Source: Escherichia phage ECBP2
Strand: one strand, 5' to 3'
Sequence record: NC_018859.1
Length of the DNA: 64,000 nucleotides
Positions within the stretch are counted from its first letter, which is position 1. Each line of letters begins with the position of its first letter. Shown piece after piece: positions 31,846 through 53,037 of the stretch. The notes under the pieces are model-generated. The model worked only from the letters and a program-made list of their open reading frames with translations, was not told the DNA's origin and ran no database searches. The position numbers and the translations under genes are program-made.

Positions 31846-32664
31846 TTACCAAGTTTTATCTAACCATGACCATTCAAAGAGGTCACCTTCAGCTTGTCCG
31901 ACGAAGAGCAATCGAGCATTTTCTAGCATCTTAGCTTCTGCTTCTTCCTCGAACCTCTTATAGTATTCCATTCGTATAATGTGATAAAGAGTACACTTAT
32001 CGAATACCTTCTCAATAAGTTTGATTGCAGCCTTGCTACCAATACCTTTACGACGCATAACTAGGTTGCCACCCCACATCATTTCAACTTTCTCACCACA
32101 TCCGGGGATGTTGTCTGTACTGTCCCCAATCAACATCTGATAGAAGAAGTTCTGCCATGCTACTTCCTCTGATACATAATGAGGAGGTACTTCTTTCTGT
32201 CGTTCACCACAAGCCCAGCGATAATGCCATCCGGGAGTGATTAACAAATCCTTATCACGAGTACAGATGATAGTGTTCTTCTCAATACGTTGTCGTTCAG
32301 CGAGTGCATCATCTGCTTCTCTACCAAACACCTCAACGTACTGATAATGTTCTTTGATGTAATCACTAACGTTCTGCCAATGATGTGGCCTTTCTCCCGG
32401 AGGTCGGTTAGCTTTGTAACCTTGTTGCTGAGCAATATCAAATCGGAAGTTACCACCTTCACTAAAATAGAAGACAGTTCTTTCACAACCAGCTCTTGAG
32501 ATGATTACATCAATCTTATGTTGGAGACGTTCAATCAAGAATCCATAATCAACTGGAACACGACCTGTGTCTAGAAAAGGATGCTCTTGTGTAAGAGCAC
32601 CAACCTCATACCGTAGAACATCTCCGTCCACAATCGCTACTTCTGGATAAGATATATCACTCAT
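31846..32664 (-). CDS. 5'-3' exonuclease / flap endonuclease (FEN, PIN-like)
   Basis: VAIVDGD, EADD, DKD and GDSTDNIPG motifs; ATG at 32664 follows GGAGGAA (ORF-track start at 32715 is further upstream). Confidence 0.8.
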   Translation of the reverse strand: MSDISYPEVAIVDGDVLRYEVGALTQEHPFLDTGRVPVDYGFLIERLQHKIDVIISRAGCERTVFYFSEGGNFRFDIAQQQGYKANRPPGERPHHWQNVSDYIKEHYQYVEVFGREADDALAERQRIEKNTIICTRDKDLLITPGWHYRWACGERQKEVPPHYVSEEVAWQNFFYQMLIGDSTDNIPGCGEKVEMMWGGNLVMRRKGIGSKAAIKLIEKVFDKCTLYHIIRMEYYKRFEEEAEAKMLENARLLFVGQAEGDLFEWSWLDKTW

Positions 32665-38942: not shown

Positions 38943-39254
38943 CTACTTCTCCACCACAAAGAGGTTAACTTCAATGAAAGTTTCGTATTGTGTTGACTCC
39001 TGCTTACGGGTGTAGTAGAAATGACGACCTTCTAATGCACCTCCGTACTGAGTGGCACATCTTTTAACCATCTCTTTTATCACATCTATAACTGATACGC
39101 CTTTCCACGGACGTAACCCATGAGTAGGAATTTCTGCTGTGCAGGTTACTTGTGTATAACCTACATCTTGTAGAGGTGTCTCAAGAATCAGCTTTGCCCA
39201 AGCATCAAAATTAAGCTTGGGGTTATATTTAACTTCAGTTTTGATATCAATCAT
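38943..39254 (-). CDS. hypothetical protein
   Basis: 103 aa; start overlaps the polymerase exon-2 stop (TAATG). Confidence 0.45.
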   Translation of the reverse strand: MIDIKTEVKYNPKLNFDAWAKLILETPLQDVGYTQVTCTAEIPTHGLRPWKGVSVIDVIKEMVKRCATQYGGALEGRHFYYTRKQESTQYETFIEVNLFVVEK

Positions 39255-39408
39255 TAGTGAGTATGATTCCAGTTTAATCCAATCTTACAATCAGATGCAA
39301 GAGGACATTCCATCTTGAGATATTCCCCTGCTTTACGGACACACTCTTCAGTGAGAGTGCGCAGAATATTAACATCATCACGATGTACAGTGAACTGGCC
39401 TTCATCCA
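39254..39408 (-). CDS. DNA polymerase (family A, T7-like) C-terminal segment (exon 2)
   Basis: Translation DEGQFTVHRDDVNIL...KIGLNWNHTH carries the motif-C Asp-Glu and the G.NW..H terminus; not part of any ORF-track entry. Confidence 0.6.
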
Positions 39409-40013
39409 TTCAGTTATTCCCAAATTACTTCGGGTGTCGGACTATATCATAACAGCATAGCTAATTTGCTGTTGTTGGCGCTTCGAGGGTTTCCCTGTTA
39501 ACCCCCTACTCCCTTAGGATAGTCTCTACACTTTCCACTTCCGAATCCATCTACAACCGATTCCGAAGCTCACACCAAACTTCTCTGCAAGATGTACACC
39601 AGAGCATTCTGTTTCTAGCCAATAGAGCCTTGCAGCCTCTTGCCTATCTCCATTTCTTCCAGTGTTTGATTCTATTGCATGTTCTGAACCTTCAAGCATT
39701 TCTAAGTGCTCAAGATTGGAACAAGCTCTATTCTTGCATTTGTGATTTATTTCATAACCGTCAGGAATAGAACCAAAAGATTCTTCCCAAACATGCCTGT
39801 GATACATGACCCATTTGCCATCTATTACTTTTCTGAAATAACCATTTTTATTAAGTTTGTGTGAGATAGGGATGATACACCCTGTTTCGGTTGTTTCCAA
39901 AACAAGAGTTTTCTTAGCCATATCATCTCCTAATAGCTTAGCTCGGTATTGCCCTCAACTTAATGGTAGGGTTTCACCGAGTTCACCAACTTTTACATGC
40001 ACAATGAAAGTTT
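39409..40013 (-). mobile_element. putative group I intron (about 605 nt) carrying an HNH homing endonuclease ORF, inserted at polymerase motif C
   Basis: Joining the His codon ending at 40014 to GAT at 39408 gives VIDMH|DEGQF (motif C). Exon 1 ends in U and the insert ends in G, as group I splice sites require. Confidence 0.45.
39526..39921 (-). CDS. HNH homing endonuclease (intron-encoded)
   Basis: 131 aa; KWVMYHRHVWEESFG...EINHKCKNRACSNLEHLE (HNH_3-type); RBS GGAG. Confidence 0.7.
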   Translation of the reverse strand: MAKKTLVLETTETGCIIPISHKLNKNGYFRKVIDGKWVMYHRHVWEESFGSIPDGYEINHKCKNRACSNLEHLEMLEGSEHAIESNTGRNGDRQEAARLYWLETECSGVHLAEKFGVSFGIGCRWIRKWKV

Positions 40014-41705
40014 ATGCATGTCGATAACCTTCGCACAACGAACACCATCACGCTCAATCCATTTATTGAGGAATAGCATTGCATACTTCATAACAATCGC
40101 CCCAGCGCTCTGTAAGAGCGTATTTAAGGCTTTATGGACCATAACCTTTCCAGTTGCATCTCTTCTCATTGTAATACGACGTCCATCCACACCGTAGATG
40201 TATCCACTTTGTGCTTTCTCGGTCATACGTTCAATAAGGATTGCAATACAAGGATTCTCTGCTAAGAATCTTGCTCTCATAATAGCCCCTTCGTCAGAGC
40301 CACCACCTACGATACTTCCTAGTTTAGCGTCACCTGCCCCATAGTTAAAGGCATATATAAACGTCTTAGCGTTATCGCGAGTAGGAAGACCAGCAAGTTT
40401 TTGGTTATGTGAGTGAATATCTCCTTCTAAAAGAATATCTCTGTACATAACAGCAGAAGCTAGACCACGTTCAGCTTCTCGTTTCTTAGCTGGGTTGTTT
40501 TCTCGCTCTGCTTCAGCGAGCATCTCACGACATTCTTTAATAAGGTAGTGAGCTAGCATCCTCAGCTCAAGACCAGAGCCATCGTAACCTAAGAAGATTT
40601 CACGACCAGCAGGTACATAGAACTTATAGGCACCTACAGGTTTGTCTTTCTTGCCCGGTTTTCCCACTTCGTAGATAATGTTAGTACCTTTTCGTACGTA
40701 ACACCCATCAGGGATATGGTTGGTAATGATGAAAGGATAGTTATGACTATCGTCTGAGGAATAGTCAGATTGAAAAAGACTGCGGCACTCGTGACCAAAC
40801 AAACCGCGAGAAGGAATATTAACAACAATACGGTGTTTAAAACGAAATGTCGGAGTAGCGCAGCTATTAGCTTCGGCGGACAACTTACCATCTTCTCGTT
40901 CCTTGTCTATAAGACCATTAATCAAGCCAAGCCTGTGAGCCGCTACAACACGTCTCTTAAGCAAACCTCCCACACCCCCTAGCTCACCCCCAAGACCTTC
41001 TTCAAGCGTCTCCTCGAGGTTTGTAGGAGCTGTAGGCCACTTGTTTGACATGGCTAAAGCTTTCTTAATTTCATCAAAGGTTACAGGCTTCTTCCTGTTC
41101 GGATTCAAGCCTAAACCACTGACGTAGGCTTTCATGTAGTTGACAGTGTGATAACGGAAGTGTTTATCCAAGAACCGACGAATGTCAGCATCAATCATCT
41201 CAGCTGTCTGTTTTTCTTTAGCGTTTCCTCGCATCCAAGCAGAATACCAAGCAGCATATGTGCCATACTTCTTCATCGCTTTACGGATTTCGTAAGTATT
41301 CCAAGGTTTCTTGGATGTGTTCCACTCTGGAGGAATGAAGCCTTCATCCATCAAGGCTTCTTTGATACGTGCATCTTTCGATGGGTCGAAGTCTACATAC
41401 TCAACGCAAGTAAACGCCCCACCGATATCTTCTCTTTTAAGACCAACTCTGTCACAATAAAGCTGAGGCCACTTCTGTAAAGCACCTGACTTCTTAAAAG
41501 GTTTCGAATAAGTTGAACCATCCACCCGCATTTTGGGGAGGAGAGGAATCAGTTCTTTATCAATATTGACAATAATCTCTTTGAGAAGGTGAACAAACCA
41601 CCGAGCGTTTCTTCTGTGGAAGTTGACGCCATGCTTCGCCTGCTTTGAGATTATATCAGCGACTGTCATCTCCGTTATGAAAGGTAACTTATCAGGGTTA
41701 TCCAT
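40014..41705 (-). CDS. DNA polymerase (family A, T7-like) polymerase domain, exon 1
   Basis: DGSGLELRMLAHY (motif A), LPTRDNAKTFIYAFNYGAGDAKLG (motif B), HKALNTLLQSAGAIVMKY; ATG at 41705 follows AAGGAG; the uninterrupted ORF instead ends KLSLCM at 39993, losing motif C. Confidence 0.8.
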
Positions 41706-41721
41706 CACCCACTCCTTATAG

Positions 41722-42075
41722 TTATTGATATATTAAATCAGTGAACGCTTGGTTATCCTCAACGATATCTAACTGTTCGTAGGATTCCGTTAGTTCATCC
41801 ACATAAAAGACTGCTGGAATATCTTCTGCTCGCTGTCTACGAGCTTCTCTTCGTTCGTTACTGTTCCTCTGAACCTGTGCAAGTTTCATACCCCACACCT
41901 GCTCATACAACTCAGGATACTTATCACTAACCACTACAAAGTTTCGAGCTGGTTGGTTTCGGTTAATCTTCGCTGTTAATTCAATAAACTGACGAAACTC
42001 TTGAATGGAGAGGTTGTCATGAATATTGTCCCATTTGAGAACGCAGTGACGTTCTAGGCGTTGAGGTACTGGCAT
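41722..42075 (-). CDS. hypothetical protein
   Basis: 117-aa ORF. Confidence 0.45.
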   Translation of the reverse strand: MPVPQRLERHCVLKWDNIHDNLSIQEFRQFIELTAKINRNQPARNFVVVSDKYPELYEQVWGMKLAQVQRNSNERREARRQRAEDIPAVFYVDELTESYEQLDIVEDNQAFTDLIYQ

Positions 42076-42078
42076 AAC

Positions 42079-42348
42079 TTACTCCACTGTCGGGAAAGGT
42101 TTCAGATTGTTCATAGCTGTACGAACATCATCACAGATTTCAGGGTCACGATAAGAGAGGAATTTACCATCCTTACCACGAATCATTACATTCGTCCGTG
42201 CTGTTTTATTAGGCAATAAAGAAATCCCTCCAATAAGATGGTTGGTAGGGTGTTGTCCTTGATTAACCTTGTAGTCATGAGTCTGAGCGTCACCATTAAA
42301 GAGATGATCACGAATTTGGATTAAGCTAATCTTCATATTATGCACCAA
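42079..42348 (-). CDS. small hypothetical protein, tandem paralog
   Basis: Shares RTNV..RG.DGKF.S.RD...LKPFP with the adjacent 42338..42589 ORF. Confidence 0.5.
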   Translation of the reverse strand: MVHNMKISLIQIRDHLFNGDAQTHDYKVNQGQHPTNHLIGGISLLPNKTARTNVMIRGKDGKFLSYRDPEICDDVRTAMNNLKPFPTVE

Positions 42349-42589
42349 AGTTAGGGAAAGGTTTCAGATTTTCAATAGACTCAGCAATACGCTTAGGAAC
42401 AGCCTTATCACGGAAGGAGATGAACTTGCCATCAGGACCACGAAGGGCTACATTAGTACGAGCTGTTGTTTTGTTAAACTGAATCATCTCAACAGAGCTT
42501 GTAACATTTTCTACAGGAAAAGTATAGCTCTCAGTTGTGTTCAGAGAAGGGAGGAAATCAGTTACAGTGATGTAAGTTACTTTAGACAT
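42338..42589 (-). CDS. small hypothetical protein, tandem paralog
   Basis: Paralog of 42079..42348. Confidence 0.5.
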   Translation of the reverse strand: MSKVTYITVTDFLPSLNTTESYTFPVENVTSSVEMIQFNKTTARTNVALRGPDGKFISFRDKAVPKRIAESIENLKPFPNFGA

Positions 42590-42615
42590 ATTTATTACCT
42601 TAGGTTACATAAAAG

Positions 42616-42640
42616 AAAAGGCCACCCGAAATGGGTAGCC
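42616..42640 (-). terminator. terminator-like hairpin
   Basis: On the - strand: GGCTACCC-ATTTC-GGGTGGCC followed by TTTTCTTTT. Confidence 0.4.
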
Positions 42641-42645
42641 TTATA

Positions 42646-42972
42646 TTAACTTGAGCTTAAAGCTCCTTTTCTAGACTTGACTCCGCCTGCTGATTTTCCA
42701 GCACGATCTCCACTTTTGCCGCCGTTCGAGCGATTTCCAGAGATTGATTCAACACGTAAGTTACTTGACGCATTAGAACCTCCCGACTTGATTGATCGTT
42801 TATGTCCAACGTCTTTACCTCGGACAGCAGCTTTTCCATCGCGCTTTTCAACGATGCGACGTGCACGGTGGCGCTGAGCATCTCCGCTCTTGCTACCAAC
42901 ACCTGTCTCCCCACGTTTGATTGCAGTTCTTCGTTCTTGTGCATAATCACGTTTCGCCTTATCGGTCATCAT
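42646..42972 (-). CDS. basic Lys/Arg/Gly/Ser-rich protein (possible nucleic-acid binding)
   Basis: AAGGAG then ATGATG at 42972; preferred over the overlapping frame 42657..42950, which lacks an RBS. Confidence 0.5.
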   Translation of the reverse strand: MMTDKAKRDYAQERRTAIKRGETGVGSKSGDAQRHRARRIVEKRDGKAAVRGKDVGHKRSIKSGGSNASSNLRVESISGNRSNGGKSGDRAGKSAGGVKSRKGALSSS

Positions 42973-43004
42973 AACTCCTTAATATATCAGTGTACACTAA
43001 GGAG

Positions 43005-43013
43005 TATACATTA
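43005..43013 (-). promoter_or_regulatory. TAATGTATA promoter-like motif
   Basis: aTAATGTATAct on the - strand about 33 nt upstream of the 42972 start. Confidence 0.3.
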
Positions 43014-43016
43014 TGT

Positions 43017-43754
43017 TTATGATTTTTCAGATTCCATTGCTTTAACAATAGCTTTACAGAAACCTGAACGAACAATATCATCCGATTCGCCATCTACTAG
43101 AGCGGCAAATTCAAATAACTGGTGACGGTAGATGAAATCAGTAGCCCAATCAAGACCACTCTCACCACGCATGTCGTGCTGGTTAGTGTCCCCCATGCAG
43201 AACATCTGAGAGGTTTCACCAAGACGTGTCATGATTGAATATGCTTCATCAGGAGTAGTGTTCTGGAACTCATCAACAATCACGATAGCATCGTTGAACG
43301 AGCGACCACGTAGATATTCCAGAGGTACGAACTCAATATTACCATTACCTACTTGACATTCGTAGAAACCTTTACCGTAGCGCTGAGTAATAACATCAAC
43401 GATTGGCATTAGGTATGGTTCAAACTTCTCACGAAGCCCACCGGGAAGTAATCCAAGACTATTACCCATACCAACAGCAGGTCGGCTTAGGATAATCTTC
43501 TCAATCTTCCCACTCTTCAGAGCATCAATCACTGTAGAAGTGATTACGAAGGTCTTACCACAACCAGCAGGAGCATCTGTGAATACAACCTGTTTGGTTT
43601 TAATTGCATCAAGCAGCTCACTCTGGAATTGGTTCTGAGGTACTACCGGCTTAGCAAGAACTACTTCTTCAAATTCCCGCTTTCCTTTCTTGGTGACGAG
43701 AGCTTCACGACGTAATTCTCTCCGTGACGCTTTCCGAGATTCTCTACGACTCAT
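43017..43754 (-). CDS. phoH: PhoH-like ATPase
   Basis: Walker A APAGCGKTF and overall PhoH-like architecture. Confidence 0.75.
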   Translation of the reverse strand: MSRRESRKASRRELRREALVTKKGKREFEEVVLAKPVVPQNQFQSELLDAIKTKQVVFTDAPAGCGKTFVITSTVIDALKSGKIEKIILSRPAVGMGNSLGLLPGGLREKFEPYLMPIVDVITQRYGKGFYECQVGNGNIEFVPLEYLRGRSFNDAIVIVDEFQNTTPDEAYSIMTRLGETSQMFCMGDTNQHDMRGESGLDWATDFIYRHQLFEFAALVDGESDDIVRSGFCKAIVKAMESEKS

Positions 43755-43932
43755 TTCCTACCTCCGTGTTCTTCATATAAGAAGCTACAGGATTTACACT
43801 CTGAGCAATGGATACCTATAACCTTAATTTCGACAAACTTCTTATTCTTCCCTTTAGTCGGGGAGCCTTTGGCAAGCTCCCGTATTACTTTCGAGTTCAA
43901 ATGGAGAAGAGTTGATTCACATTTAAAACATT

Positions 43933-44253
43933 TCAGATTGATTTGTCCTTATGTAAACGGTATACTTCAGTAGCCATACAAGCAATACGCTCGTCATGTG
44001 GGAGATGCATACCAGTAGAGCCGTTCCATCCTTCGAACTCTGAATCAAAGAATCCAACAGGCTCGGGATACATCTCTTGCAAAGTGGTTAAGTCATCAGC
44101 CACTTGTTGCCATTTGTCATCAGACCAGATTGGGTCATCCAACCAATAATACAGATAGGAATGGATAAGCATCTGCGTTCTGTGTCGTTTAATCACTTCA
44201 GCAGGACTAATCTCGTTTCCGTTAACAGTCCTAAATGTATTATCATTAATCAT
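43933..44253 (-). CDS. small protein resembling the N-terminal domain Ia of NAD-dependent DNA ligase
   Basis: LIHSYLYYWLDDPIWSDDKWQQVADDLTTLQEMYPE parallels the LigA H.YLYY.LD.P.ISD.EYD.L...L..LE..YPE signature. Confidence 0.35.
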   Translation of the reverse strand: MINDNTFRTVNGNEISPAEVIKRHRTQMLIHSYLYYWLDDPIWSDDKWQQVADDLTTLQEMYPEPVGFFDSEFEGWNGSTGMHLPHDERIACMATEVYRLHKDKSI

Positions 44254-44729
44254 TCCAAAACCCTTTCTTCTAAATCGTAAAAGATTTGATTTGTCCCATT
44301 ATTCTCAACAAGCACTGTTCCATTATCTAACAGGGTAGCAACTTGGGAATAAGGAATGTTCTTTAACATCAGAGCATTAATGGTCGGCTTATTTTTGAAG
44401 TAAGCGACAGGCTCAACATAGAAGGAAATCCCACGACTTCCTTTAATTGGAGTGCTAGAAGATAGAACCCAAATTGTTTCTGGCTTGTCTATTTCCTTTT
44501 CAACACCAACCTCAACAAGTGAGTCAGCAGCGAAACCTACAGGACGACTAGAAGAGCCAAGTGCCCGAATAAATCCTGGCAATTTTGACATGTTAGACCA
44601 ACTACCAGTGTTTTCATTAAACACAGGTCTTACGTCTCCATATGCCCAAACCAGATTATCATAGTCACGGGCTATGTATTTAACCCAATCAGGAACATCA
44701 TACTCCCTTCCTTCAAAAATAACTTTCAT
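44250..44729 (-). CDS. hypothetical protein
   Basis: 159-aa ORF. Confidence 0.45.
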   Translation of the reverse strand: MKVIFEGREYDVPDWVKYIARDYDNLVWAYGDVRPVFNENTGSWSNMSKLPGFIRALGSSSRPVGFAADSLVEVGVEKEIDKPETIWVLSSSTPIKGSRGISFYVEPVAYFKNKPTINALMLKNIPYSQVATLLDNGTVLVENNGTNQIFYDLEERVLE

Positions 44730-44999
44730 TTAGATAACCTTGTGCTTATAGATGTTAGGGTTGAAGTAGTGCAACCAGTTTATATATTGTTTCTGTTCGA
44801 GGTAGTGCCTGCAATCATGACAAAAAGCATGACCCAAACCTGTTTCCTCATTCAGTTTGAAATTGATAAGAAGCTTCTGCTTTCGACAGAAGCTACATGC
44901 TTTAGTGGGCTTCACGTAATGCATCCCAAGAGATTGGATATATTTTACGAAGCTCTTCATCAATTGTTGATGCGAACACTCGTACTTCGTACTGAGCAT
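44730..44999 (-). CDS. small Cys-rich (zinc-finger-like) protein; start uncertain
   Basis: CSFC...CHDCRH pairs; the 5' end overlaps the ThyX gene, so the true start is probably internal. Confidence 0.35.
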   Translation of the reverse strand: MLSTKYECSHQQLMKSFVKYIQSLGMHYVKPTKACSFCRKQKLLINFKLNEETGLGHAFCHDCRHYLEQKQYINWLHYFNPNIYKHKVI

Positions 45000-45552
45000 G
45001 GTCTGACAGTCGCTGACGACACAACTCTGACCAACCGTATAGAGAACCAGTCCATACCCACTCAGTGATCATACCCTGAGGTAATACGAATCGAGCTTGT
45101 TCTGGAGCAATGAACTTAATCAATTCATCGTACGACTCAAGAGCTGTTTCATATGCTCGGTTAATCAGAACTAGTGCAGAGTTTTGTGCTCCTGTGGTGA
45201 GGAGATTCCCTGCACCTGCATGGAGGTCCGAAGGTCTTTCAAAAATCTCTTTAGGGATGAAGAGTTCAACTGCTCCATCTTTATACCGCCGGGACATTTC
45301 GTTCCACGAGAATCCAACTTGGTGTTTATTGAGTTGTCTAGCAATTGCAATGGGAGCCTTACACCGAAAGGTGATTTGAGGGTGTCGAAAAGGAGTCACA
45401 TGACGTTCCCGAGCTAAGAATTTAATCAACCGCTCGTCACGTTCGTTCAGATCACCATCTCGTGTCACACCAAAGGAAACCCTTGCTGCATTGACCACAG
45501 ATTTGTCGGAACCCATGTGCTCTACCAGTGTTGCTTTTAAAAAATCAGACAT
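44902..45552 (-). CDS. thyX: FAD-dependent thymidylate synthase
   Basis: Region HQVGFSWNEMSRRY resembles the ThyX RHR...S...S.RY signature. Confidence 0.75.
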   Translation of the reverse strand: MSDFLKATLVEHMGSDKSVVNAARVSFGVTRDGDLNERDERLIKFLARERHVTPFRHPQITFRCKAPIAIARQLNKHQVGFSWNEMSRRYKDGAVELFIPKEIFERPSDLHAGAGNLLTTGAQNSALVLINRAYETALESYDELIKFIAPEQARFVLPQGMITEWVWTGSLYGWSELCRQRLSDHAQYEVRVFASTIDEELRKIYPISWDALREAH

Positions 45553-46012
45553 ACTTCAACTTCTCCTTGTTGTAAATTTCTTCTGCCTCTTCGCAAGAAG
45601 CAAAAGTTCCTAAATGTATATTCTTACCTTTGACGCCGATAATGGCTCGATATTTATCACCAGAAGCTGTCTTACGAAGATACACACCTCTAGGAAGATT
45701 TCCTATCTTGTTATCAACATCGTACTGCCTTCTGTTATGACAGTTAGTAGATGGATTCACATCTCTTAGGTTATCAATTGAGTCATTAAGTTTGTTCTGG
45801 TCAATGTGGTCAATTTCAAACTCAGGGAATTTTCCATGAACAAAGAACCAAGCAAGACGGCAAGCTCTGTAGCTTTTCCCTTCATGCTCAATGTAACGAT
45901 AACCTAGAGAAGATACATACCCAGCTTGATTTCCTTTAACCCTTCGACCTTTTGTGTTCTTCCAGAAGAAGTCTCCAGTCTTAGGGTTGTATTCCAAGTC
46001 GTCTTGTATCAT
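45545..46012 (-). CDS. HNH homing endonuclease with AP2-like DNA-binding domain
   Basis: EIDHIDQNKLNDSIDNLRDV (HNH) plus YRAIIGVKGKNIHLGTFASCEEAEEIY (AP2-like). Confidence 0.7.
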   Translation of the reverse strand: MIQDDLEYNPKTGDFFWKNTKGRRVKGNQAGYVSSLGYRYIEHEGKSYRACRLAWFFVHGKFPEFEIDHIDQNKLNDSIDNLRDVNPSTNCHNRRQYDVDNKIGNLPRGVYLRKTASGDKYRAIIGVKGKNIHLGTFASCEEAEEIYNKEKLKYV

Positions 46013-46019
46013 TTCTTAC

Positions 46020-46235
46020 TTAATAGTGAATCTTTTTATAAATCAGGTTGCTTCCACTTTCTGTTTCAATCCCTTTCTGGATTGTAACTTTAGAAGCACC
46101 GGTATTAGCAATTTTTAAAGCTCGCTTAAACCGGCGAGCCTCTTTCCGTGTGGAGTATGTTGAGAAGCTAGGGATTGTGCTATCAAAATTAAACCACTTA
46201 ACTACCCAAAAAGTAATCCAAGGTTTCTTTTCCAT
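46020..46235 (-). CDS. small protein, member of a three-copy paralog family
   Basis: Shares W...F.TR.EAR..K......KV.I......SG...I..K.HY with 48100..48315 and 48315..48527. Confidence 0.45.
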   Translation of the reverse strand: MEKKPWITFWVVKWFNFDSTIPSFSTYSTRKEARRFKRALKIANTGASKVTIQKGIETESGSNLIYKKIHY

Positions 46236-46236
46236 A

Positions 46237-46512
46237 TTAAATACCTTTCAGAGCCGTGTCTAAAAATGCACGGAGATTAGATTCAGTTTGCATACCTGAT
46301 AAACTATAATGAGCACCACTATTCTTATCAGGGACGACAAAGGCTGGGATACTGCGAACACCGTATTCAATGGCTCGCTCTCGACCATTACCTTCAGAGA
46401 TATTTACTTCTTCAACTTCTACACTGTAGTCAGCCACAACCTTCTTAAACACAGGAGCCATAGCTGCACATGGAGCACATGAATTACTATAAAACTTAAT
46501 TACTTTACTCAT
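46237..46512 (-). CDS. thioredoxin/glutaredoxin-like protein
   Basis: CAPC active-site motif in a thioredoxin-fold context; ATG at 46512 follows AAGGAA. Confidence 0.6.
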   Translation of the reverse strand: MSKVIKFYSNSCAPCAAMAPVFKKVVADYSVEVEEVNISEGNGRERAIEYGVRSIPAFVVPDKNSGAHYSLSGMQTESNLRAFLDTALKGI

Positions 46513-46702
46513 TCTATTCCTTGTTAATAAACAGGTTGATATGACGCTGGGTAGCAGGAACAACAATAAAAGATTTATACTGACCTTTTGCTAAGTCATG
46601 AGCAATCTTCTTTGTCTGACCAAGACCCATCACACAGCCACTAACGATAATGGCATGTGCTTGTAATTCTTCAGGTAGGTTTAGTTTCACTCTTTAGATT
46701 CC

Positions 46703-46888
46703 TTATAGCATACAAAGAATAATAACAAGAGGTAGTGTTATAGCAAAATGTACCAGAACAACACTACCTAGCTTGATAGCTTTAACATCCTCTTCTGCTG
46801 GGTTTTCTTTAATTGCTAAATTTCGAGCTTTATATATAACAGTACCAACTATTAACGACCACACGGCCCACACAATCAGTGAAATCAT
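46703..46888 (-). CDS. small two-TM membrane protein (paralog pair)
   Basis: 61 aa with two hydrophobic segments; similar to 46898..47119. Confidence 0.45.
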   Translation of the reverse strand: MISLIVWAVWSLIVGTVIYKARNLAIKENPAEEDVKAIKLGSVVLVHFAITLPLVIILCML

Positions 46889-46897
46889 ATCAAACCC

Positions 46898-47119
46898 TTA
46901 TGCAGTCAACAGGTGGAGAAGGAAAGGAATGACAACAGAGAAAATTACCAGAGCAATGCTGCCATGTTTAATGGGTTTAGCATCATTCGGATTTTCTTTA
47001 AGCATCTGTTTCTGAGCCAGATAAACGATACCACCAACAAGAATTGCCCACACAGACCATACGATTGCTGAAAACATATTCACATCCTTATAAAGAAGTT
47101 CGCCCCACCTCTTAAACAA
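46898..47119 (-). CDS. small two-TM membrane protein (paralog pair)
   Basis: 73 aa; IVWSVWAILVGGIVY...KENP...K.GS.ALV.F shared with the neighbour. Confidence 0.45.
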   Translation of the reverse strand: MFKRWGELLYKDVNMFSAIVWSVWAILVGGIVYLAQKQMLKENPNDAKPIKHGSIALVIFSVVIPFLLHLLTA

Positions 47120-47140
47120 AGAGACAGGGCGGAGGTTTGA

Positions 47141-47707
47141 TTAGTAAGACACGTCACCACTAGAGTGGGACATGTTGCTCTTGACGAAGTAACAGAACTT
47201 GCCAAGACCTTCATTAATTTCTTGAAGCATACTCTGGTCTACTGGATAGGTGCACAAGTCTGAATCAAACTCGTCCATCTTTTCAATGATACACATCAGA
47301 GTCATGCACATGTCGGAAAGCATACCGTCCATGTCGAGATCAGCACTACCTTCTCTGAACCAAGCACAACTAAGATAGCTACTAGCTGTTGCATCCACTT
47401 TGATACAGTGATAACGCATTCGCTCAGCTACTCGGTCTCCTGTTTCACGAGCATAGTCTTCTAATTCATCGAACATACCATGAACACCTTGGAAACCAGC
47501 TCCAGAGACGTTCCAGTGGTAATTCTTTGCTTTGATGTGTAGAAGCTCAAGGTTAGCCTGCACACCGCATAGGATGTGCTCTAGACTGTTACCGCTGATC
47601 AGTTTATTCATTCCCTCAAGACGAGAGATAGAGGAGTCAGTTGTAGAGAATGGGTTACTAGAACCCACTCGTGTTAGTTCAGGTAAGTCGAAGACATTAT
47701 TATGCAT
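47141..47707 (-). CDS. Dps/ferritin-like protein (putative)
   Basis: HWNVSGAGFQGVHGMFDELEDYARETGDRVAERM parallels the Dps ferroxidase-site motif; RBS GGAGAG. Confidence 0.5.
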   Translation of the reverse strand: MHNNVFDLPELTRVGSSNPFSTTDSSISRLEGMNKLISGNSLEHILCGVQANLELLHIKAKNYHWNVSGAGFQGVHGMFDELEDYARETGDRVAERMRYHCIKVDATASSYLSCAWFREGSADLDMDGMLSDMCMTLMCIIEKMDEFDSDLCTYPVDQSMLQEINEGLGKFCYFVKSNMSHSSGDVSY

Positions 47708-48047
47708 TAGGAGTCTCTCCTTCTAAGTTGGTTGAATTGGCTACGTTACGAGCAATGTTGTCCATGACCTGCTGGGTAATAACAATGCAATTCTGTGGGT
47801 CTACAGACTTAGAACGCCCCATTTCAGGGTCATAAACCTTAACACGTTTGGCTGTTGAGCCAGTAACTTGCAACACTTTGAGAAGATAACCTTGATTTCC
47901 AATAGACCATGCAACAACATCACGATTCTTGATATAACGACCAAGCATATCACGATGATAGAACTGCTGCATAACTTTAGCTTTGCTAATCTCTTCAGAT
48001 GGCGGGGCCACTTTACTCAAATCTAACATAACTCTCTCCTGTTTCAT
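47700..48047 (-). CDS. hypothetical protein
   Basis: 115-aa ORF. Confidence 0.45.
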   Translation of the reverse strand: MKQERVMLDLSKVAPPSEEISKAKVMQQFYHRDMLGRYIKNRDVVAWSIGNQGYLLKVLQVTGSTAKRVKVYDPEMGRSKSVDPQNCIVITQQVMDNIARNVANSTNLEGETPNA

Positions 48048-48066
48048 ACAATATTCTTATACTGTA

Positions 48067-48075
48067 TATACATTT
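48067..48075 (-). promoter_or_regulatory. AAATGTATA promoter-like motif
   Basis: 8/9 match to TAATGTATA on the - strand just upstream of the 48047 start. Confidence 0.25.
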
Positions 48076-48099
48076 GAGAGTTATCATATCTACTACCAA

Positions 48100-48315
48100 C
48101 TAGTAATAAACCTTGCTGGATATGAATCCAGCACTGTTCTGGATATTTTCAATCCAACGATGAATCTCCACCTTTTCAGCGATTCCTAAAGCTTTTGTAG
48201 CTTTTATAGTTTTCTTAGCAAGACGAGCCTCTTGTCTTGTGTTGAATAATTGAATACAATCACCACCAAGAGCTTTGTTAGCCCATTTAGTACGAACTGC
48301 CCATAATTTATCCAT
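48100..48315 (-). CDS. small protein, paralog family member
   Basis: 71 aa; see 46020..46235. Confidence 0.45.
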   Translation of the reverse strand: MDKLWAVRTKWANKALGGDCIQLFNTRQEARLAKKTIKATKALGIAEKVEIHRWIENIQNSAGFISSKVYY

Positions 48316-48527
48316 TAGTAATGTACCTTTCCGCTGATATAGAAACGACCTGATTTAAAGTCTTGAGCTTTGTGGATAGTGATCTTATTAATTGTGCTTT
48401 CACAACTTAACAAGAACTTCTTATGAGCGCGAGCTTCTTGACGGGTATTCCTAATACCCATTGACTCTGTACCACTGCTCCAGTGAATACGAACTACCCA
48501 ACGTCTTTTCATTGTTCCAAACTCCAT
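48315..48527 (-). CDS. small protein, paralog family member
   Basis: 70 aa; see 46020..46235. Confidence 0.45.
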   Translation of the reverse strand: MEFGTMKRRWVVRIHWSSGTESMGIRNTRQEARAHKKFLLSCESTINKITIHKAQDFKSGRFYISGKVHY

Positions 48528-48718
48528 TATCTGTCAACCGATTTAGGGACAAACTGCATTACACAGACCTGATTACGAGGGAGATTTATTTCACAAGCGG
48601 CTCTTCTCGTCTCAATCTTAACGCTAGAATCTGGACCAACGTTAGATATAAATACTCCCATAGCAAATGCCCCAACTACAAAACCAATAGCTAAGTAAGT
48701 AGCTTTTTCTTCTTTCAT
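48527..48718 (-). CDS. small membrane protein
   Basis: 63 aa with one hydrophobic helix. Confidence 0.35.
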   Translation of the reverse strand: MKEEKATYLAIGFVVGAFAMGVFISNVGPDSSVKIETRRAACEINLPRNQVCVMQFVPKSVDR

Positions 48719-48723
48719 CTTGG

Positions 48724-49257
48724 TTATACACCTTTAGATGCAACTACACCTTCAGAGTTATTATAACGACCCTTCACTGCATAGGAGTGTTCCCCTGCAT
48801 GAGAGTGCTCAAACATCACCATCTGACCAACACGCATACCAGCACGAACTCGTAAGCTGTGGTTGTGAGTAACGTTATGGAATTCAAAGGTTAGCTTACT
48901 GCTATTAAACCCTGCATCAGCCCAACCAGCATGAAGGTGGTTCAAACCACAACGAGCCATTGAGGAGCGGAGTACAAACAGGCTTGAGATATTATCTGGA
49001 AGGTTAAACTCTTCCATCGAGTGAGCTAAGAAGAACTGTCCCGGAGTGATAACGATACCATCTTCAGGGATTTTTACTTCTTTCCACTTGAGGTTTTCTT
49101 TAGCATCAATGTCAACAATGCCGTCAGCCTGTTCTTCAACAAGGATAGTATCACCAATACGGATATCCACGCTAGCAGCGTTAACATATTTATGCTCCGC
49201 ATCTAAAAAGCCATTATCAATAACGCTGTGTAATTCTTGAGAACCTAAAAGACTCAT
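48724..49257 (-). CDS. dcd: dCTP deaminase / dUTPase-family protein
   Basis: SVDIRIG and RSSMARCG segments typical of the dCTP deaminase family. Confidence 0.75.
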   Translation of the reverse strand: MSLLGSQELHSVIDNGFLDAEHKYVNAASVDIRIGDTILVEEQADGIVDIDAKENLKWKEVKIPEDGIVITPGQFFLAHSMEEFNLPDNISSLFVLRSSMARCGLNHLHAGWADAGFNSSKLTFEFHNVTHNHSLRVRAGMRVGQMVMFEHSHAGEHSYAVKGRYNNSEGVVASKGV

Positions 49258-50702
49258 GAGTTTCTATTTCCTTGTACAGATGATGCCAAATTGTTAATCA
49301 TGTTGCGAGCTGTTTCACGAGATAGTGTAACACCTGCTAAGTTGTTATGAAGCTCACCAGATAGTTCACGAGCAGCAGCTCGAAGTTCTGCACCAAGTGC
49401 AGTGTCAGAGTGAGCCAGACCGTTACGACGACCGACAGGTCGAGGAGTATTGTTAGCATCATTAGCTAAAGATGGAAAATCAATACGAGCAGCTTCACGA
49501 GCCGCTATCGCTGCTACTCGATCTTCCGTAGGGGTTGGCAAATCACCAACTTCTACACGTTCTATATCACCAGCACATAGACCCTGAACAACTGAGCTTA
49601 CTGTTTCCCATGAACGATGAGAACGCTGTAAATCACCCATTGACGGAGAAGGAATAGGACGAGCAGTTCCCCCTTGAACATGCCATGTACGGTTGTGGGT
49701 GTCCGTCCCAGAAGAACGTGCACTACCAAAACTACCATTAAAAGTATTACGAGGGTCCATTGTAGAAGGGGCTGCGAATCTTGGGACTTCCTGTTGCCAA
49801 GAGTCACGTCTGTTGGTTCCCGGAGTCCAAGGTTGTGTGATTGCTTCAGCACCGATAGTGGTTAATCCACTAGACCATTCTGTCTGTAGGTTAACTTCCT
49901 CGTCCAGATAACTACGACCCCTTTCCTGAGGAATGTTTAATATAGTTTCCATCATCTTCAGGGTATAATGACGACGCTGATTCTGATATAAATTTACACC
50001 AGCCATAGGTCCAACTAAATCACTAATCAGGTGAACTTCTGGCTCACCGAAAGCTCCCATTGCAAGGTGCATATATTCGGTAGAACTGCTATAAACTGCA
50101 ACAGTTGCTTCAGGCCACTTCTTGTGAACGTACTTCATTTCACGACTAGATACCACAGGAATGTCACGAGTGTATGACATTGCAAACAAACCTTCGTTTG
50201 ACACATACAGATTACCAAGAGTCATAAACCCTTGACAGATCATAGGGAAGCGACGGCTTAAAGTATCCATATCCAAAGGTAGATTAATCATCATCTGGAT
50301 TTTAACTTGATCAATCTCAATTTCCAGAATCTCTTGGAAAGTGAAAAGCGCTTCAGCATAGGTTGTCCCGTTAACAGGCTGAATTAGTCGAGATGTAACT
50401 TGAAGCCCCTTACTCTCTGTCCAAGACAAGAAGTTGTCAAGGAACAGTGCAGCATTACTTACGTTAGCAGGGCTGTTTTCCTGACGAGTGTTCCAACGGA
50501 ATCCCCCTTGAACTAGGAAGATATCAACATCATTCGGAGTTCGATTTTGGAAGAACGTATCACGGATAGCACCACCTGCAATGACAGGATAGATACCATC
50601 AGGGACTACGTTATCTCTGATCAAATTACGAATTAGGTCAAGCCCTACACTGAGGGCTTCTCCTTCTTGAAGGTTCAATTCAGACAATGGAATCTTAATC
50701 AT
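49254..50702 (-). CDS. nucleotidyltransferase with CCA-adding/poly(A)-polymerase-type head motif and disordered C-terminal half
   Basis: GGAIRDTFFQNRTPNDVDIFL matches the GGxVRD...D.D head motif; the C-terminal ~200 aa are Ser/Arg/Gly/Thr/Ala-rich. Confidence 0.5.
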   Translation of the reverse strand: MIKIPLSELNLQEGEALSVGLDLIRNLIRDNVVPDGIYPVIAGGAIRDTFFQNRTPNDVDIFLVQGGFRWNTRQENSPANVSNAALFLDNFLSWTESKGLQVTSRLIQPVNGTTYAEALFTFQEILEIEIDQVKIQMMINLPLDMDTLSRRFPMICQGFMTLGNLYVSNEGLFAMSYTRDIPVVSSREMKYVHKKWPEATVAVYSSSTEYMHLAMGAFGEPEVHLISDLVGPMAGVNLYQNQRRHYTLKMMETILNIPQERGRSYLDEEVNLQTEWSSGLTTIGAEAITQPWTPGTNRRDSWQQEVPRFAAPSTMDPRNTFNGSFGSARSSGTDTHNRTWHVQGGTARPIPSPSMGDLQRSHRSWETVSSVVQGLCAGDIERVEVGDLPTPTEDRVAAIAAREAARIDFPSLANDANNTPRPVGRRNGLAHSDTALGAELRAAARELSGELHNNLAGVTLSRETARNMINNLASSVQGNRNS

Positions 50703-50704
50703 TT

Positions 50705-51253
50705 CTACATTTTCCAGTTGAGAGATGGGGGATTCTTATAATCAAATCCTGCCATTTGGCAAAGACACATATAAACCTTAACTGTTAAGTTAACGTCTTG
50801 CTCACAATATGTGAACATGTCTTCAGTGAATGCATCCCATGCTTCTTCCTGCTCACCATAATCACCCTTCAGCTCACCCAGAAATTCGCCCCATTGCTTG
50901 AGGCCGTGACCACGAGGGCCATGTCTTGGGTCGCCTTTGGGATATTCTGGATTGTCTCCAATACGGTCAGGCTTGAGATAACGACTCAGGCAAAGTGTAT
51001 CGAAAACATTGAAGTGGAAAGGTATTACATGAGAGTAGAATTTAAAGAGAGCTGGAAGGTCGAAGTCGATAATGTTATGACCTACAACTACATCAGCTTC
51101 TTTCAGTTTGTGAAGAGCTTCTTCAATTTGGTGAGGGCGATACCCCCACCGTTCACCTGTAAGAGCATCAAATATCCAGATACACCAGACATTTTGGATG
51201 CCCTCATAGAGATTATCACCCTCGATATCGAAGGCGAATATTTTCTTTACCAA
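50705..51253 (-). CDS. 3'-5' proofreading exonuclease (T7 DNA polymerase exo-domain-like), separate gene
   Basis: [10 protein letters not shown] (Exo I), [12 protein letters not shown] (Exo II), YCEQD (Exo III); TTG start 7 nt after GGGGAGG, overlapping the helicase stop. Confidence 0.7.
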
Positions 51254-53037
51254 GGTCGTGCCTCCCCGTCTTGTGTGAGCAGAGAAGCTGCATCCTCACC
51301 ATTGGTCAAGACAAACGGATTAGCTTCATCAACTTCATGATCTTCTCGTTCTACAAGTCGACCTGTTTCATTGATGTACTTGGTGTAGCAAACACCTGTC
51401 TGACCATAGTTACGCTCTTTGAGGAGTCGTATGATTGACAAGTTCTTGCCTAACCCATCAGCTTGCTTATCTCGTTCAAAACCAATGATGCACTGACACC
51501 AACGCATTAGTGAACGTGAACCAGTGAACTGAACCTCTTTCACCTGTCCACCTTCTTCGTGAGGAGCACCACCTGCCGGAGCATTCAAGTGAGATAATAC
51601 AAAAGCAGTGAAGTCTAATTCCTTACACATACCAGCAAGCTCTGAGGCAATCTTACTGATTTCTGTATTCACTTCAGATGGGGTTAGGTGAGAGACTAGC
51701 GCAGTGATGTTATCAAGAATGATAAACTTACACTGATTCTCGACTACCCAGAAGCGAATACACTGCTTAATATCATCCCACTCATTCTGACCGAAGTTAT
51801 CATACAAGAAGAATTTATCAGCATAACGAAGTGCTTCATCACGTAGCTGAGATTCCTCATATTCAACATCAGGTCGGTGGAAAGGTACAGATGCTGACTT
51901 ACCTGCAATGTTTTTAACAGACATGCCTACCTTCTCTTCCAAGAAGAAGCCACCACCATTAAACCCATGTTCAAGGCAAAGCCATGCTACCAGTTCGTGT
52001 GCGATCAGGGTTTTACCTGAACCAACACCACCACCGATTGCAACCATCTCTCCCCAACGAATACCGAAGGTCATTTCATTCAGAGTTTTCCACGGATAAG
52101 GAATACCCCACTCCGCTTTCTTCAGAGCATCTTCTAAACAATCAAAGACAGTAACAGCACCAGCAGGTGATTCCCGCTTCGCTGAATATTTCAGATTGTT
52201 GAATAACTCTTGACCTCGACCAGCGAGTAACATGTCATTTGCATCTTTGATTTCCTTCTCTTGACCATTGTAAGTGAAGGTTCCTTTCGGAATACGAGCA
52301 AATTTAACATGGGGGTATAATGCACGACCTTTAGTTAATGCAATCTCACCTGCATCATCATTGTCCATGCAGAGCACAATCTCCTCAAAACCATTCAAGA
52401 AGTCACGGTTACGTGAGAGAACGGAAGAGATTGAACCTGCACCAAACGGTAGAGATACACACGCAGGTTTGATGTTTGTAGCGTTCGTAAACGCAGTGAG
52501 CACATGGAAGCCAGACATACAAGAGAGTGGGTCTTCAAAGATGAAGAGCTTCTTGTTGTACACGTCACCACGTTGTGCTTGAGCCATACCGAATAGGTCA
52601 GCTTCTTTAACACTGCCGATGTAATAGAATTTCTTGCTGTCCAGAAGCTTAACTTCATAACCAACAATGTTTCCATCACGTTCACGAGGGAAGAAATAAC
52701 TATCAGGAGTTTGCCCATCCGTCTGACTTAAACCGATACGACATTCATATCGTTCAGAGACAGCTTTAGGAATCAAACGACGAGTAAGCTCGCCCTGAGG
52801 TAGCTCTAAGCAATCGTCTAAGATCTCTCGGAGTTCTTCAGGGGATAGTTCTTTCTTCTCATTCGGTGTAGGAGTTGTTCCCTTTTCGAAAACTTCATAA
52901 CTGCCACAACGATTACAACTGCCCCACTCTTCACCGGACTCTTCGTTTCGGAAGAGAATCATGTGATTGTGGGTCTTATCACGACCATGAGAGATACATT
53001 CCTTACAACCTGTATCTCCTAGGATGATCTTTGACAT
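51247..53037 (-). CDS. primase-helicase (T7 gp4-like)
   Basis: N-terminal zinc ribbon CKEC...CNRC, central TOPRIM-like region, Walker [10 protein letters not shown]; RBS AGGAGG. Confidence 0.85.

Follow-up and report, generated by a model that had tools for sequence, protein, structure and literature searches.

Separate genes for the exonuclease and polymerase parts of a T7-type DNA polymerase in Escherichia phage ECBP2 and related phages

The DNA polymerase of phage T7, gp5, is a single 704-aa polypeptide with an exonuclease and a polymerase domain, and its processivity factor is thioredoxin borrowed from the host. In the Pol III core of E. coli, the alpha polymerase is proofread in trans by the DEDD exonuclease epsilon (DnaQ), which is encoded by a separate, unlinked gene.

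Separate genes for the two functions have also been described in phages. According to PMC9965538 (2023), all Kuravirus-like phages have "separately encoded" polymerase, 5'-3' exonuclease and 3'-5' exonuclease subunits. Exonuclease and polymerase also lie on separate genes in the LUZ24 group and in phiEco32 (PMC3517423; where it deals with phiEco32, this source cites the original paper, Savalia 2008, for the split). In phiEco32-like phages (Kuravirus, Suseptimavirus) the pairs are gp72 and gp51/49 of SU7, Bas88_0065 and Bas88_0041 of Bas88, and gp70 and gp49 of YF01. In LUZ24-like phages (Bruynoghevirus; LUZ24, tf, PaP3), gp25 of LUZ24 is the exonuclease subunit and gp34/gp36 the polymerase.

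The DNA analysed here, referred to as the window, is a stretch of 64,000 nt from Escherichia phage ECBP2 (NC_018859.1). A 14-kb region of it is 91-94% identical (~93%) at the nucleotide level to Bas87, Bas88, IME267, SU7, EK010 and others. On its sequence, the window phage is a phiEco32-like podophage of the Gordonclarkvirinae, near Suseptimavirus, the genus of which SU7 is the type. It has the same two genes as the phiEco32-like phages, in the same order and with the same gap of ~9 kb; a TTG or GTG start lying over the helicase stop is common to them, and the differences are at strain level only.

With LUZ24, the window has in common a stand-alone exonuclease gene that overlaps the primase-helicase stop, a polymerase that lacks the exonuclease and starts at the same position, and the same amidoligase/GATase/ATP-grasp genes upstream. 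Identity between LUZ24 and the window is only 33% for the exonuclease (gp25) and 37% for the polymerase (gp34). The gap between the genes is however 2.3 kb with 8 genes in LUZ24, compared with 9 kb and ~23 in the window, and the LUZ24 intron lies in motif B and carries another endonuclease, whereas that of the window lies in motif C.

The likeness to T7 gene 5 covers domain content, domain order and catalytic residues (in T7, D5/E7/D65/Y170/D174; D475; R518/K522/Y526; H653-D654-E655; H704), and both halves find their best PDB match in T7 gp5. As in T7, the upstream gene encodes a helicase with an acidic tail and an aromatic residue at its end. In contrast to the single polypeptide of T7, the window has two genes 9 kb apart, its polymerase half contains ~100 extra residues in insertions, and its thioredoxin is phage-encoded rather than the host's. 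The likeness to Pol III would be in proofreading in trans from a separate gene, as proposed here for the window. The two polymerases are unrelated (family C in Pol III, family A in the window), and epsilon is of the DEDDh type, whereas the window exonuclease is of the DEDDy type and related specifically to the family A editing domain.

The split into exonuclease and polymerase genes is real in the window phage, yet it is a clade-wide, published feature of phiEco32-like and LUZ24-like phages. It was already known, since it is annotated in related records and stated in PMC9965538 and PMC3517423. The exonuclease gene is labelled "DNA polymerase exonuclease subunit" in the BASEL records and "DNA polymerase" in others; as the former label already exists in related records, the value for annotation is small. 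What is added here is the breadth of the arrangement (35 exonuclease and 120 polymerase homologues), the helicase-exonuclease synteny, the range of the gap, the break point shared with LUZ24, the co-divergence of the two proteins, and the background rate of fusion.

The two genes and their products

An earlier note, made from the letters of this DNA, had described a 182-aa ORF that carries the three exonuclease motifs of the T7 polymerase, abuts the primase-helicase gene and starts at a TTG with a strong Shine-Dalgarno sequence. All of this was borne out. The features are as follows.

50705..51253, minus strand: predicted stand-alone 3'-5' proofreading exonuclease gene, 182 aa, TTG start; corresponds to T7 gp5 residues 1 to ~195
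51261..51267, minus strand: Shine-Dalgarno sequence GGGGAGG, 7 nt before the exonuclease TTG, within the 3' end of the primase-helicase gene
51247..53037, minus strand: primase-helicase gene, 596 aa; Pfam DnaB_C and Toprim_2
51232..51218, minus strand: Exo I (FDIEG), aa 8-12; D9 and E11 align with T7 gp5 D5 and E7
51082..51047, minus strand: Exo II, aa 58-69; H59-N60-I-I-D-F-D65 aligns with T7 gp5 H59-N60..D65
50809..50795, minus strand: Exo III (YCEQD), aa 149-153; Y149 and D153 align with T7 gp5 Y170 and D174
49254..50702, minus strand: nucleotidyltransferase-like ORF, 482 aa; PHROG nucleotidyltransferase (E=1.6e-177), no Pfam match

The TTG (51253-51251, as read from the sequence) is the only plausible start of the exonuclease, since the first internal Met is residue 146. 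The stop codon of the primase-helicase gene (TAA, 51249-51247) falls within the first exonuclease codons, and the two genes overlap by 7 nt. Both the start and the Shine-Dalgarno sequence are kept in relatives, with TTG in Bas88 and GTG in SU7 at the same position. The exonuclease ORF ends with TAG, and 3 bases on the 482-aa nucleotidyltransferase-like gene starts. This neighbour has an N-terminal GGxxRD...DVD motif and a long, low-complexity C-terminal half rich in Ser, Arg, Gly and Asn; the distant relative L007 has a shorter, unassigned ORF of 280 aa in its place, and L006 and LUZ24 lack this gene.

All five DEDDy catalytic residues of the exonuclease match those of T7 gp5 (D5, E7, D65, Y170, D174) in a pairwise alignment, and the 25 stand-alone homologues compared, at 37-80% identity, all have D9, E11, H59, N60, D65, Y149 and D153. 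The protein belongs to PHROGs families named "DNA polymerase exonuclease subunit". Pfam DNA_pol_A_exo1 (PF01612) scores 29.3 bits against a curated cutoff of 23.6, the best homologue has E=7e-125, and 1662 phage records are matched; thus, the assignment is not a chance match. When the PDB was searched by sequence, the matches with E<1 were T7 gp5 chains only, the best-scoring stretch covering T7 residues 3-142 and the BLASTP alignment residues 1-178.

An AlphaFold2 model built on the homologue alignment has a pLDDT of 93.3. In a Foldseek comparison of this model with the PDB, the first 27 matches all belong to T7 gp5, with E between 1.8e-10 and 4.4e-8 and a query-normalised TM-score of 0.60-0.74 (0.72 at E=1.8e-10). 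The next class, comprising diDNase, NrnC and family B editing domains, begins at ~7e-5, which places T7 gp5 ahead by five orders of magnitude. Near the C-terminus a conserved segment, FDxxNPP or F..NPP (F170, P175, P176), aligns with the interdomain linker of T7, FPPEIDF. Judged by alignment and predicted fold, the 182-aa protein is a DEDDy 3'-5' exonuclease of the family A polymerase type, with a DnaQ-like/RNase H fold. Membership of an unrelated DnaQ-type family was considered and ruled out, T7 gp5 being closest both by PDB sequence search and by Foldseek.

The polymerase is encoded in two exons.

40014..41705, minus strand: DNA polymerase exon 1, aa 1-564; thumb, palm and fingers; ends at the motif C His
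39254..39406, minus strand: DNA polymerase exon 2, aa 565-614; starts DEGQF (the rest of motif C) and ends at the conserved C-terminal His

The spliced product is predicted to have 614 aa. The ORF at 39993..41708 (571 aa) has a Pfam DNA_pol_A match in its C-terminal part only (PF00476, 51.7 bits against a cutoff of 34.3), and the best PDB matches of the polymerase are T7 gp5 (E=3e-30). The spliced polymerase is collinear with T7 gp5 over residues ~196-704, up to the C-terminal His, and motifs A, B and C are intact. Their residues (D375/E380 in motif A, R443/K447/Y451/Y455-G456 in motif B, H564-D565-E566 in motif C), together with the C-terminal H614, are invariant in 50 homologues and aligned with the T7 residues. 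A model of an intron-less homologue (P0036, 98% identical) has a pLDDT of 90.5 and T7 gp5 as its best match; the N-terminus consists of long thumb-type helices, with no RNase H-like sheet.

An HMM of the exonuclease family gave no match on the spliced polymerase (score -2.0). In a six-frame translation of the whole window the same HMM found only 50705..51253 (E=6e-90), the next best having E>1. The polymerase (41705..39254), which begins at about T7 residue 196, is therefore free of exonuclease motifs, as the earlier note had held. An exonuclease domain hidden in the N-terminal 360 aa of the polymerase, where Pfam has no match, was rejected on the basis of the negative HMM result, the collinearity with T7 and the helical model. 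In the PHROG_17 polymerase profile, the exonuclease matches positions 670-826 and the polymerase positions 837-1233, adjacent and without overlap. The alignment against T7 gene 5 that had been proposed as a check gave the same outcome, with the exonuclease ORF and the polymerase covering adjacent parts of gp5. By alignment, then, the two proteins are adjacent, non-overlapping parts of T7 gp5 in which the catalytic residues of both are conserved, and the genes are parted precisely where the exonuclease domain meets the polymerase domain.

The gap between the genes, from 41706 to 50704, comprises 8,999 nt and ~23 tiled minus-strand ORFs, close to the 9 kb and 20 genes first estimated. The ORFs include PhoH, ThyX, thioredoxin, a DNA-binding protein, dCTP deaminase and the nucleotidyltransferase. 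Features in and beyond the gap are listed here.

47131..47101, minus strand: terminator-like hairpin, 13-bp stem, T-rich tail; between the exonuclease and polymerase genes
46237..46512, minus strand: phage thioredoxin gene, between the exonuclease and polymerase genes; found by tblastn with Bas88_0054, 97.8% identity
42642..42618, minus strand: terminator-like hairpin, 10-bp stem, T-rich tail; upstream of the polymerase gene
31846..32664, minus strand: 5'-3' exonuclease (T7 gp6 / FEN type); found by tblastn with Bas88_0024, 97% identity

With these two strong hairpins on the coding strand between them, the exonuclease and polymerase genes probably do not share a transcript; in the SU7 record, too, a terminator is annotated upstream of the polymerase gene. 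A promoter scan carried no information, as it found 19 sites, compared with 29 expected by chance. The 5'-3' exonuclease, the third Pol I-like activity, is also on a gene of its own.

Distribution of the split arrangement

Among 5.8 billion proteins, the exonuclease homologues, with identity down to 33%, are unfused in 35 of 35 cases. Their length is 105-195 aa, and 163-195 aa for all except one truncated entry. None of the best 120 polymerase homologues (identity down to 36%) is fused, and none exceeds 618 aa; intact members cover ~97% of the query. The exonuclease protein is 95-98% identical to those of TH42, Bas86-88, EK010 and SU7. The split arrangement is fixed across a large clade.

The gene order is also conserved. 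The exonuclease gene follows the helicase gene, with an overlap or abutment of -8 to +29 nt, in Bas88, SU7, LUZ24 and the metagenomic relatives L005, L006 and L007. The distance from exonuclease to polymerase is 1.7 kb in L005, 2.3 kb in LUZ24, 3.2 kb in L006, 9.0 kb in the window, 9.6 kb in L010 and more than 10 kb in L007. Helicase, exonuclease and polymerase stand in the order of T7 genes 4 and 5; this order and the variable gaps would fit a single, old break at the domain boundary followed by the accretion of small genes. The LUZ24 and window polymerases align from their extreme N-termini, so that the break point is identical. Exonuclease and polymerase have diverged to similar degrees, with identities to the window proteins of 97/96% in Bas88, 46/48% in L006, 33/38% in L005 and 33/37% in LUZ24.

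The earlier note had called the split unusual. This is correct for T7-type polymerases overall: a search of IMG/VR with the exonuclease profile gave, among its 80 best loci (34-50% identity, for the most part T7-like contigs from the environment), ~60 in which the two are fused in an ORF of ~570-660 aa, and ~10 with separate exonuclease and polymerase ORFs or an exonuclease alone. It is not correct for the clade of the window phage, in which the split is universal.

In two of the IMG/VR loci (L012:2427-4479 and L084:7720-9527), an exonuclease ORF (~160-200 aa) and a polymerase ORF (~450 aa) are adjacent in different frames, ~200 nt apart or overlapping. Either they arose by independent fission events at this domain boundary, or they are frameshifts or sequencing errors.

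The most divergent stand-alone exonuclease, at 33% identity, is that of L005 (L005:920-1507, Logan contig ERR5976724_690128). It keeps a T7-like insertion, KARLGDKYQEGMEWWEF, which may be compared with FKRMLEEQGEEYVDGMEWWNF in T7; the polymerase of the same contig is 546 aa long and 1.7 kb from the exonuclease. L005 may be an intermediate between the T7-like and phiEco32-like arrangements.

Upstream of the primase-helicase gene, from ~53.2 kb on the minus strand, the window carries genes for a COOH-NH2 ligase, an amidoligase, a glutamine amidotransferase, an ATP-grasp (RimK-like) protein and a gamma-glutamyl cyclotransferase. This amidoligase-type cluster is kept from the window phage to LUZ24 (compare L001:4698-11987 and L089:1-5076), which indicates that the phiEco32-like and LUZ24 groups share a whole module beyond the split replicase.

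Assembly in trans and alternative readings

We suggest that the window phage makes a T7-type replicase as a 182-aa exonuclease and a 614-aa polymerase, the latter split by an intron, from two genes whose products are reassembled in trans, and we regard this as probable. The exonuclease would dock non-covalently on the polymerase, in the manner of the N-terminal domain in T7 gp5, and the two together would rebuild a gp5-like holoenzyme in which a mismatched primer end is handed to the exonuclease site for editing. The phage thioredoxin would probably act as the processivity factor and the acidic C-terminal tail of the helicase, probably, as a tether. Assembly in trans can reasonably be inferred. 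It is favoured by the fit of the two proteins to T7 gp5, the fixation of the split in the clade, the conserved gene order and the co-divergence, and a partnership of the two proteins is further suggested by a Rosetta-stone argument, since related environmental T7-like contigs mostly have both fused in one ORF. The F..NPP linker-like segment, the thioredoxin gene between the two genes and the acidic helicase tail are compatible with docking. Against a tight unit count the distance of 9 kb, the hairpins in between, and the coupling of the exonuclease gene to the helicase gene and not to the polymerase gene.

By analogy with T7, the phage thioredoxin is a candidate processivity partner of the polymerase, a segment of which aligns with T7 residues 289-356, inside the thioredoxin-binding region of T7. 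The thioredoxin gene is also present in the distant relative L007. For phage Privateer, a processivity role of a phage-encoded thioredoxin has been stated as a hypothesis (PMC7881722).

The C-terminus of the primase-helicase (51247..51366, minus strand) is acidic and its last residue is W. The tails of relatives are acidic too and end in Y, F or I, while the T7 gp4 tail reads ...DWSNDTDF. An acidic tail with an aromatic end resembles the polymerase-binding tail of the T7 helicase; PDB entry 6P7E is described as the T7 helicase tail bound to gp5.

The exonuclease might instead be an autonomous nuclease with no polymerase partner, which could serve in host DNA degradation, recombination, or nick or primer processing, and the polymerase would then copy without dedicated proofreading. 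The two genes are indeed unlinked, with terminator-like hairpins between them, their distance has been free to vary from 1.7 kb to more than 10 kb, isolated DEDD nucleases (diDNase, NrnC) are among the weaker fold matches, and the literature searched yielded no interaction data for exonuclease and polymerase. We nevertheless consider this reading unlikely: by sequence and fold the nearest relative is the proofreading domain of T7 gp5 and not a free exonuclease, the break lies exactly at the domain junction with the linker-like FDxxNPP retained, the two proteins co-occur and co-diverge in every genome examined, and the window has no other exonuclease-like domain able to proofread. An artefact of frameshift or misassembly, or a decaying pseudogene remnant in the case of the exonuclease, is extremely improbable. 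Nothing in the window points to it, although the adjacent ORFs in different frames of L012 and L084 could be sequencing frameshifts; the genes of the window are separated by ~23 ORFs (8,999 nt), and the same arrangement occurs in dozens of independently sequenced phages. For the exonuclease itself, artefact and pseudogene are refuted by the invariant catalytic residues, the pLDDT of 93 and the recurrence in dozens of phages.

A further reading concerns the way in which the exonuclease reaches the replisome. Its gene is translationally coupled to the helicase gene in all relatives examined (33-97% identity), while the distance to the polymerase gene drifts, and it may therefore be delivered by the helicase. 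The exonuclease would then not be a fixed polymerase subunit but helicase-loaded, or exchangeable between polymerases, which we think doubtful. In its specific form, in which the primase-helicase brings the exonuclease to the replisome as a trans-acting proofreader shared by leading- and lagging-strand polymerases, the proposal is quite unlikely. In its favour, all relatives examined, from 97% down to 33% identity, have the exonuclease start within or next to the end of the helicase gene, and the polymerase gene lies at no fixed distance. However, the order of helicase, exonuclease and polymerase mirrors that of T7 gene 4 and then gene 5, so the adjacency of helicase and exonuclease can be a relic of a split of gene 5 with later insertions; tight overlaps are general in the operon; and the structures give no hint of a helicase-binding surface. 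If true, a shared exonuclease delivered by the helicase would be a type of replisome that has not been described for family A replicases.

The phages of this clade represent a natural experiment, in which a T7-type replicase has persisted long in evolution with its editing domain on a separate polypeptide. The biochemistry of exonuclease and polymerase would show what the covalent link is worth in T7 gp5 and Klenow-type enzymes, and could yield a polymerase to which proofreading is added or from which it is left out at will. A search of the literature for the biochemistry of split phage family A polymerases returned genome descriptions only; it also turned up the OM43 phages, which have another split, inside the polymerase domain.

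A putative group I intron in polymerase motif C

The two polymerase exons are separated by an insertion of 607 nt that contains an ORF of its own.

39407..40013, minus strand: predicted group I intron with HNH ORF, 607 nt, between H564 and D565 of motif C
39526..39921, minus strand: HNH homing endonuclease ORF in the intron, 131 aa; Pfam HNH_3 (E=2e-13), PHROG HNH endonuclease

The edges of the insertion were set by comparison with the uninterrupted 614-aa polymerase of Bas88, and are in frame and exact. Rfam RF00028 covers the insertion with its full model at 27.2 bits (E=1e-4), the gathering score being 50. A predicted P1 forms between CAUGCAU in the exon and GUGCAUG and places a U.G pair at the 5' splice site; the terminal G of the intron is at 39407. 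Alternatively, the 51-aa ORF at 39254..39409 might be an independently translated fragment of the polymerase, as it is annotated in SU7, where it has a ribosome-binding site of its own. The exact boundaries defined by Bas88, the Rfam match, and P1 with the terminal G favour an intron, and the group I intron is the better supported of the two readings.

The intron is present in the window and SU7 and not in Bas88. The window intron with its HNH ORF shares 98% identity with its SU7 counterpart and ~85% with those of some other Gordonclarkvirinae. It also has ~66% nucleotide identity, over nearly its full length, to the gene 5 intron with HNH ORF of T7-like phages (13a, Bas102-104 and Yersinia phages), and to Vp_R1. 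This similarity points to one mobile intron family that occupies the same site in fused and in split polymerases.

Many polymerase homologues (P0046, P0050-P0052, P0096, P0099 and others) are only 437-460 aa long and cover 77-80% of the query. In LUZ24 (L089:10000-12306) the polymerase is interrupted behind motif B (KTFI) by a gap that holds an endonuclease VII gene. The short homologues and the LUZ24 break suggest two or more different intron or endonuclease insertion sites in the polymerase clade, one in motif B and one in motif C.
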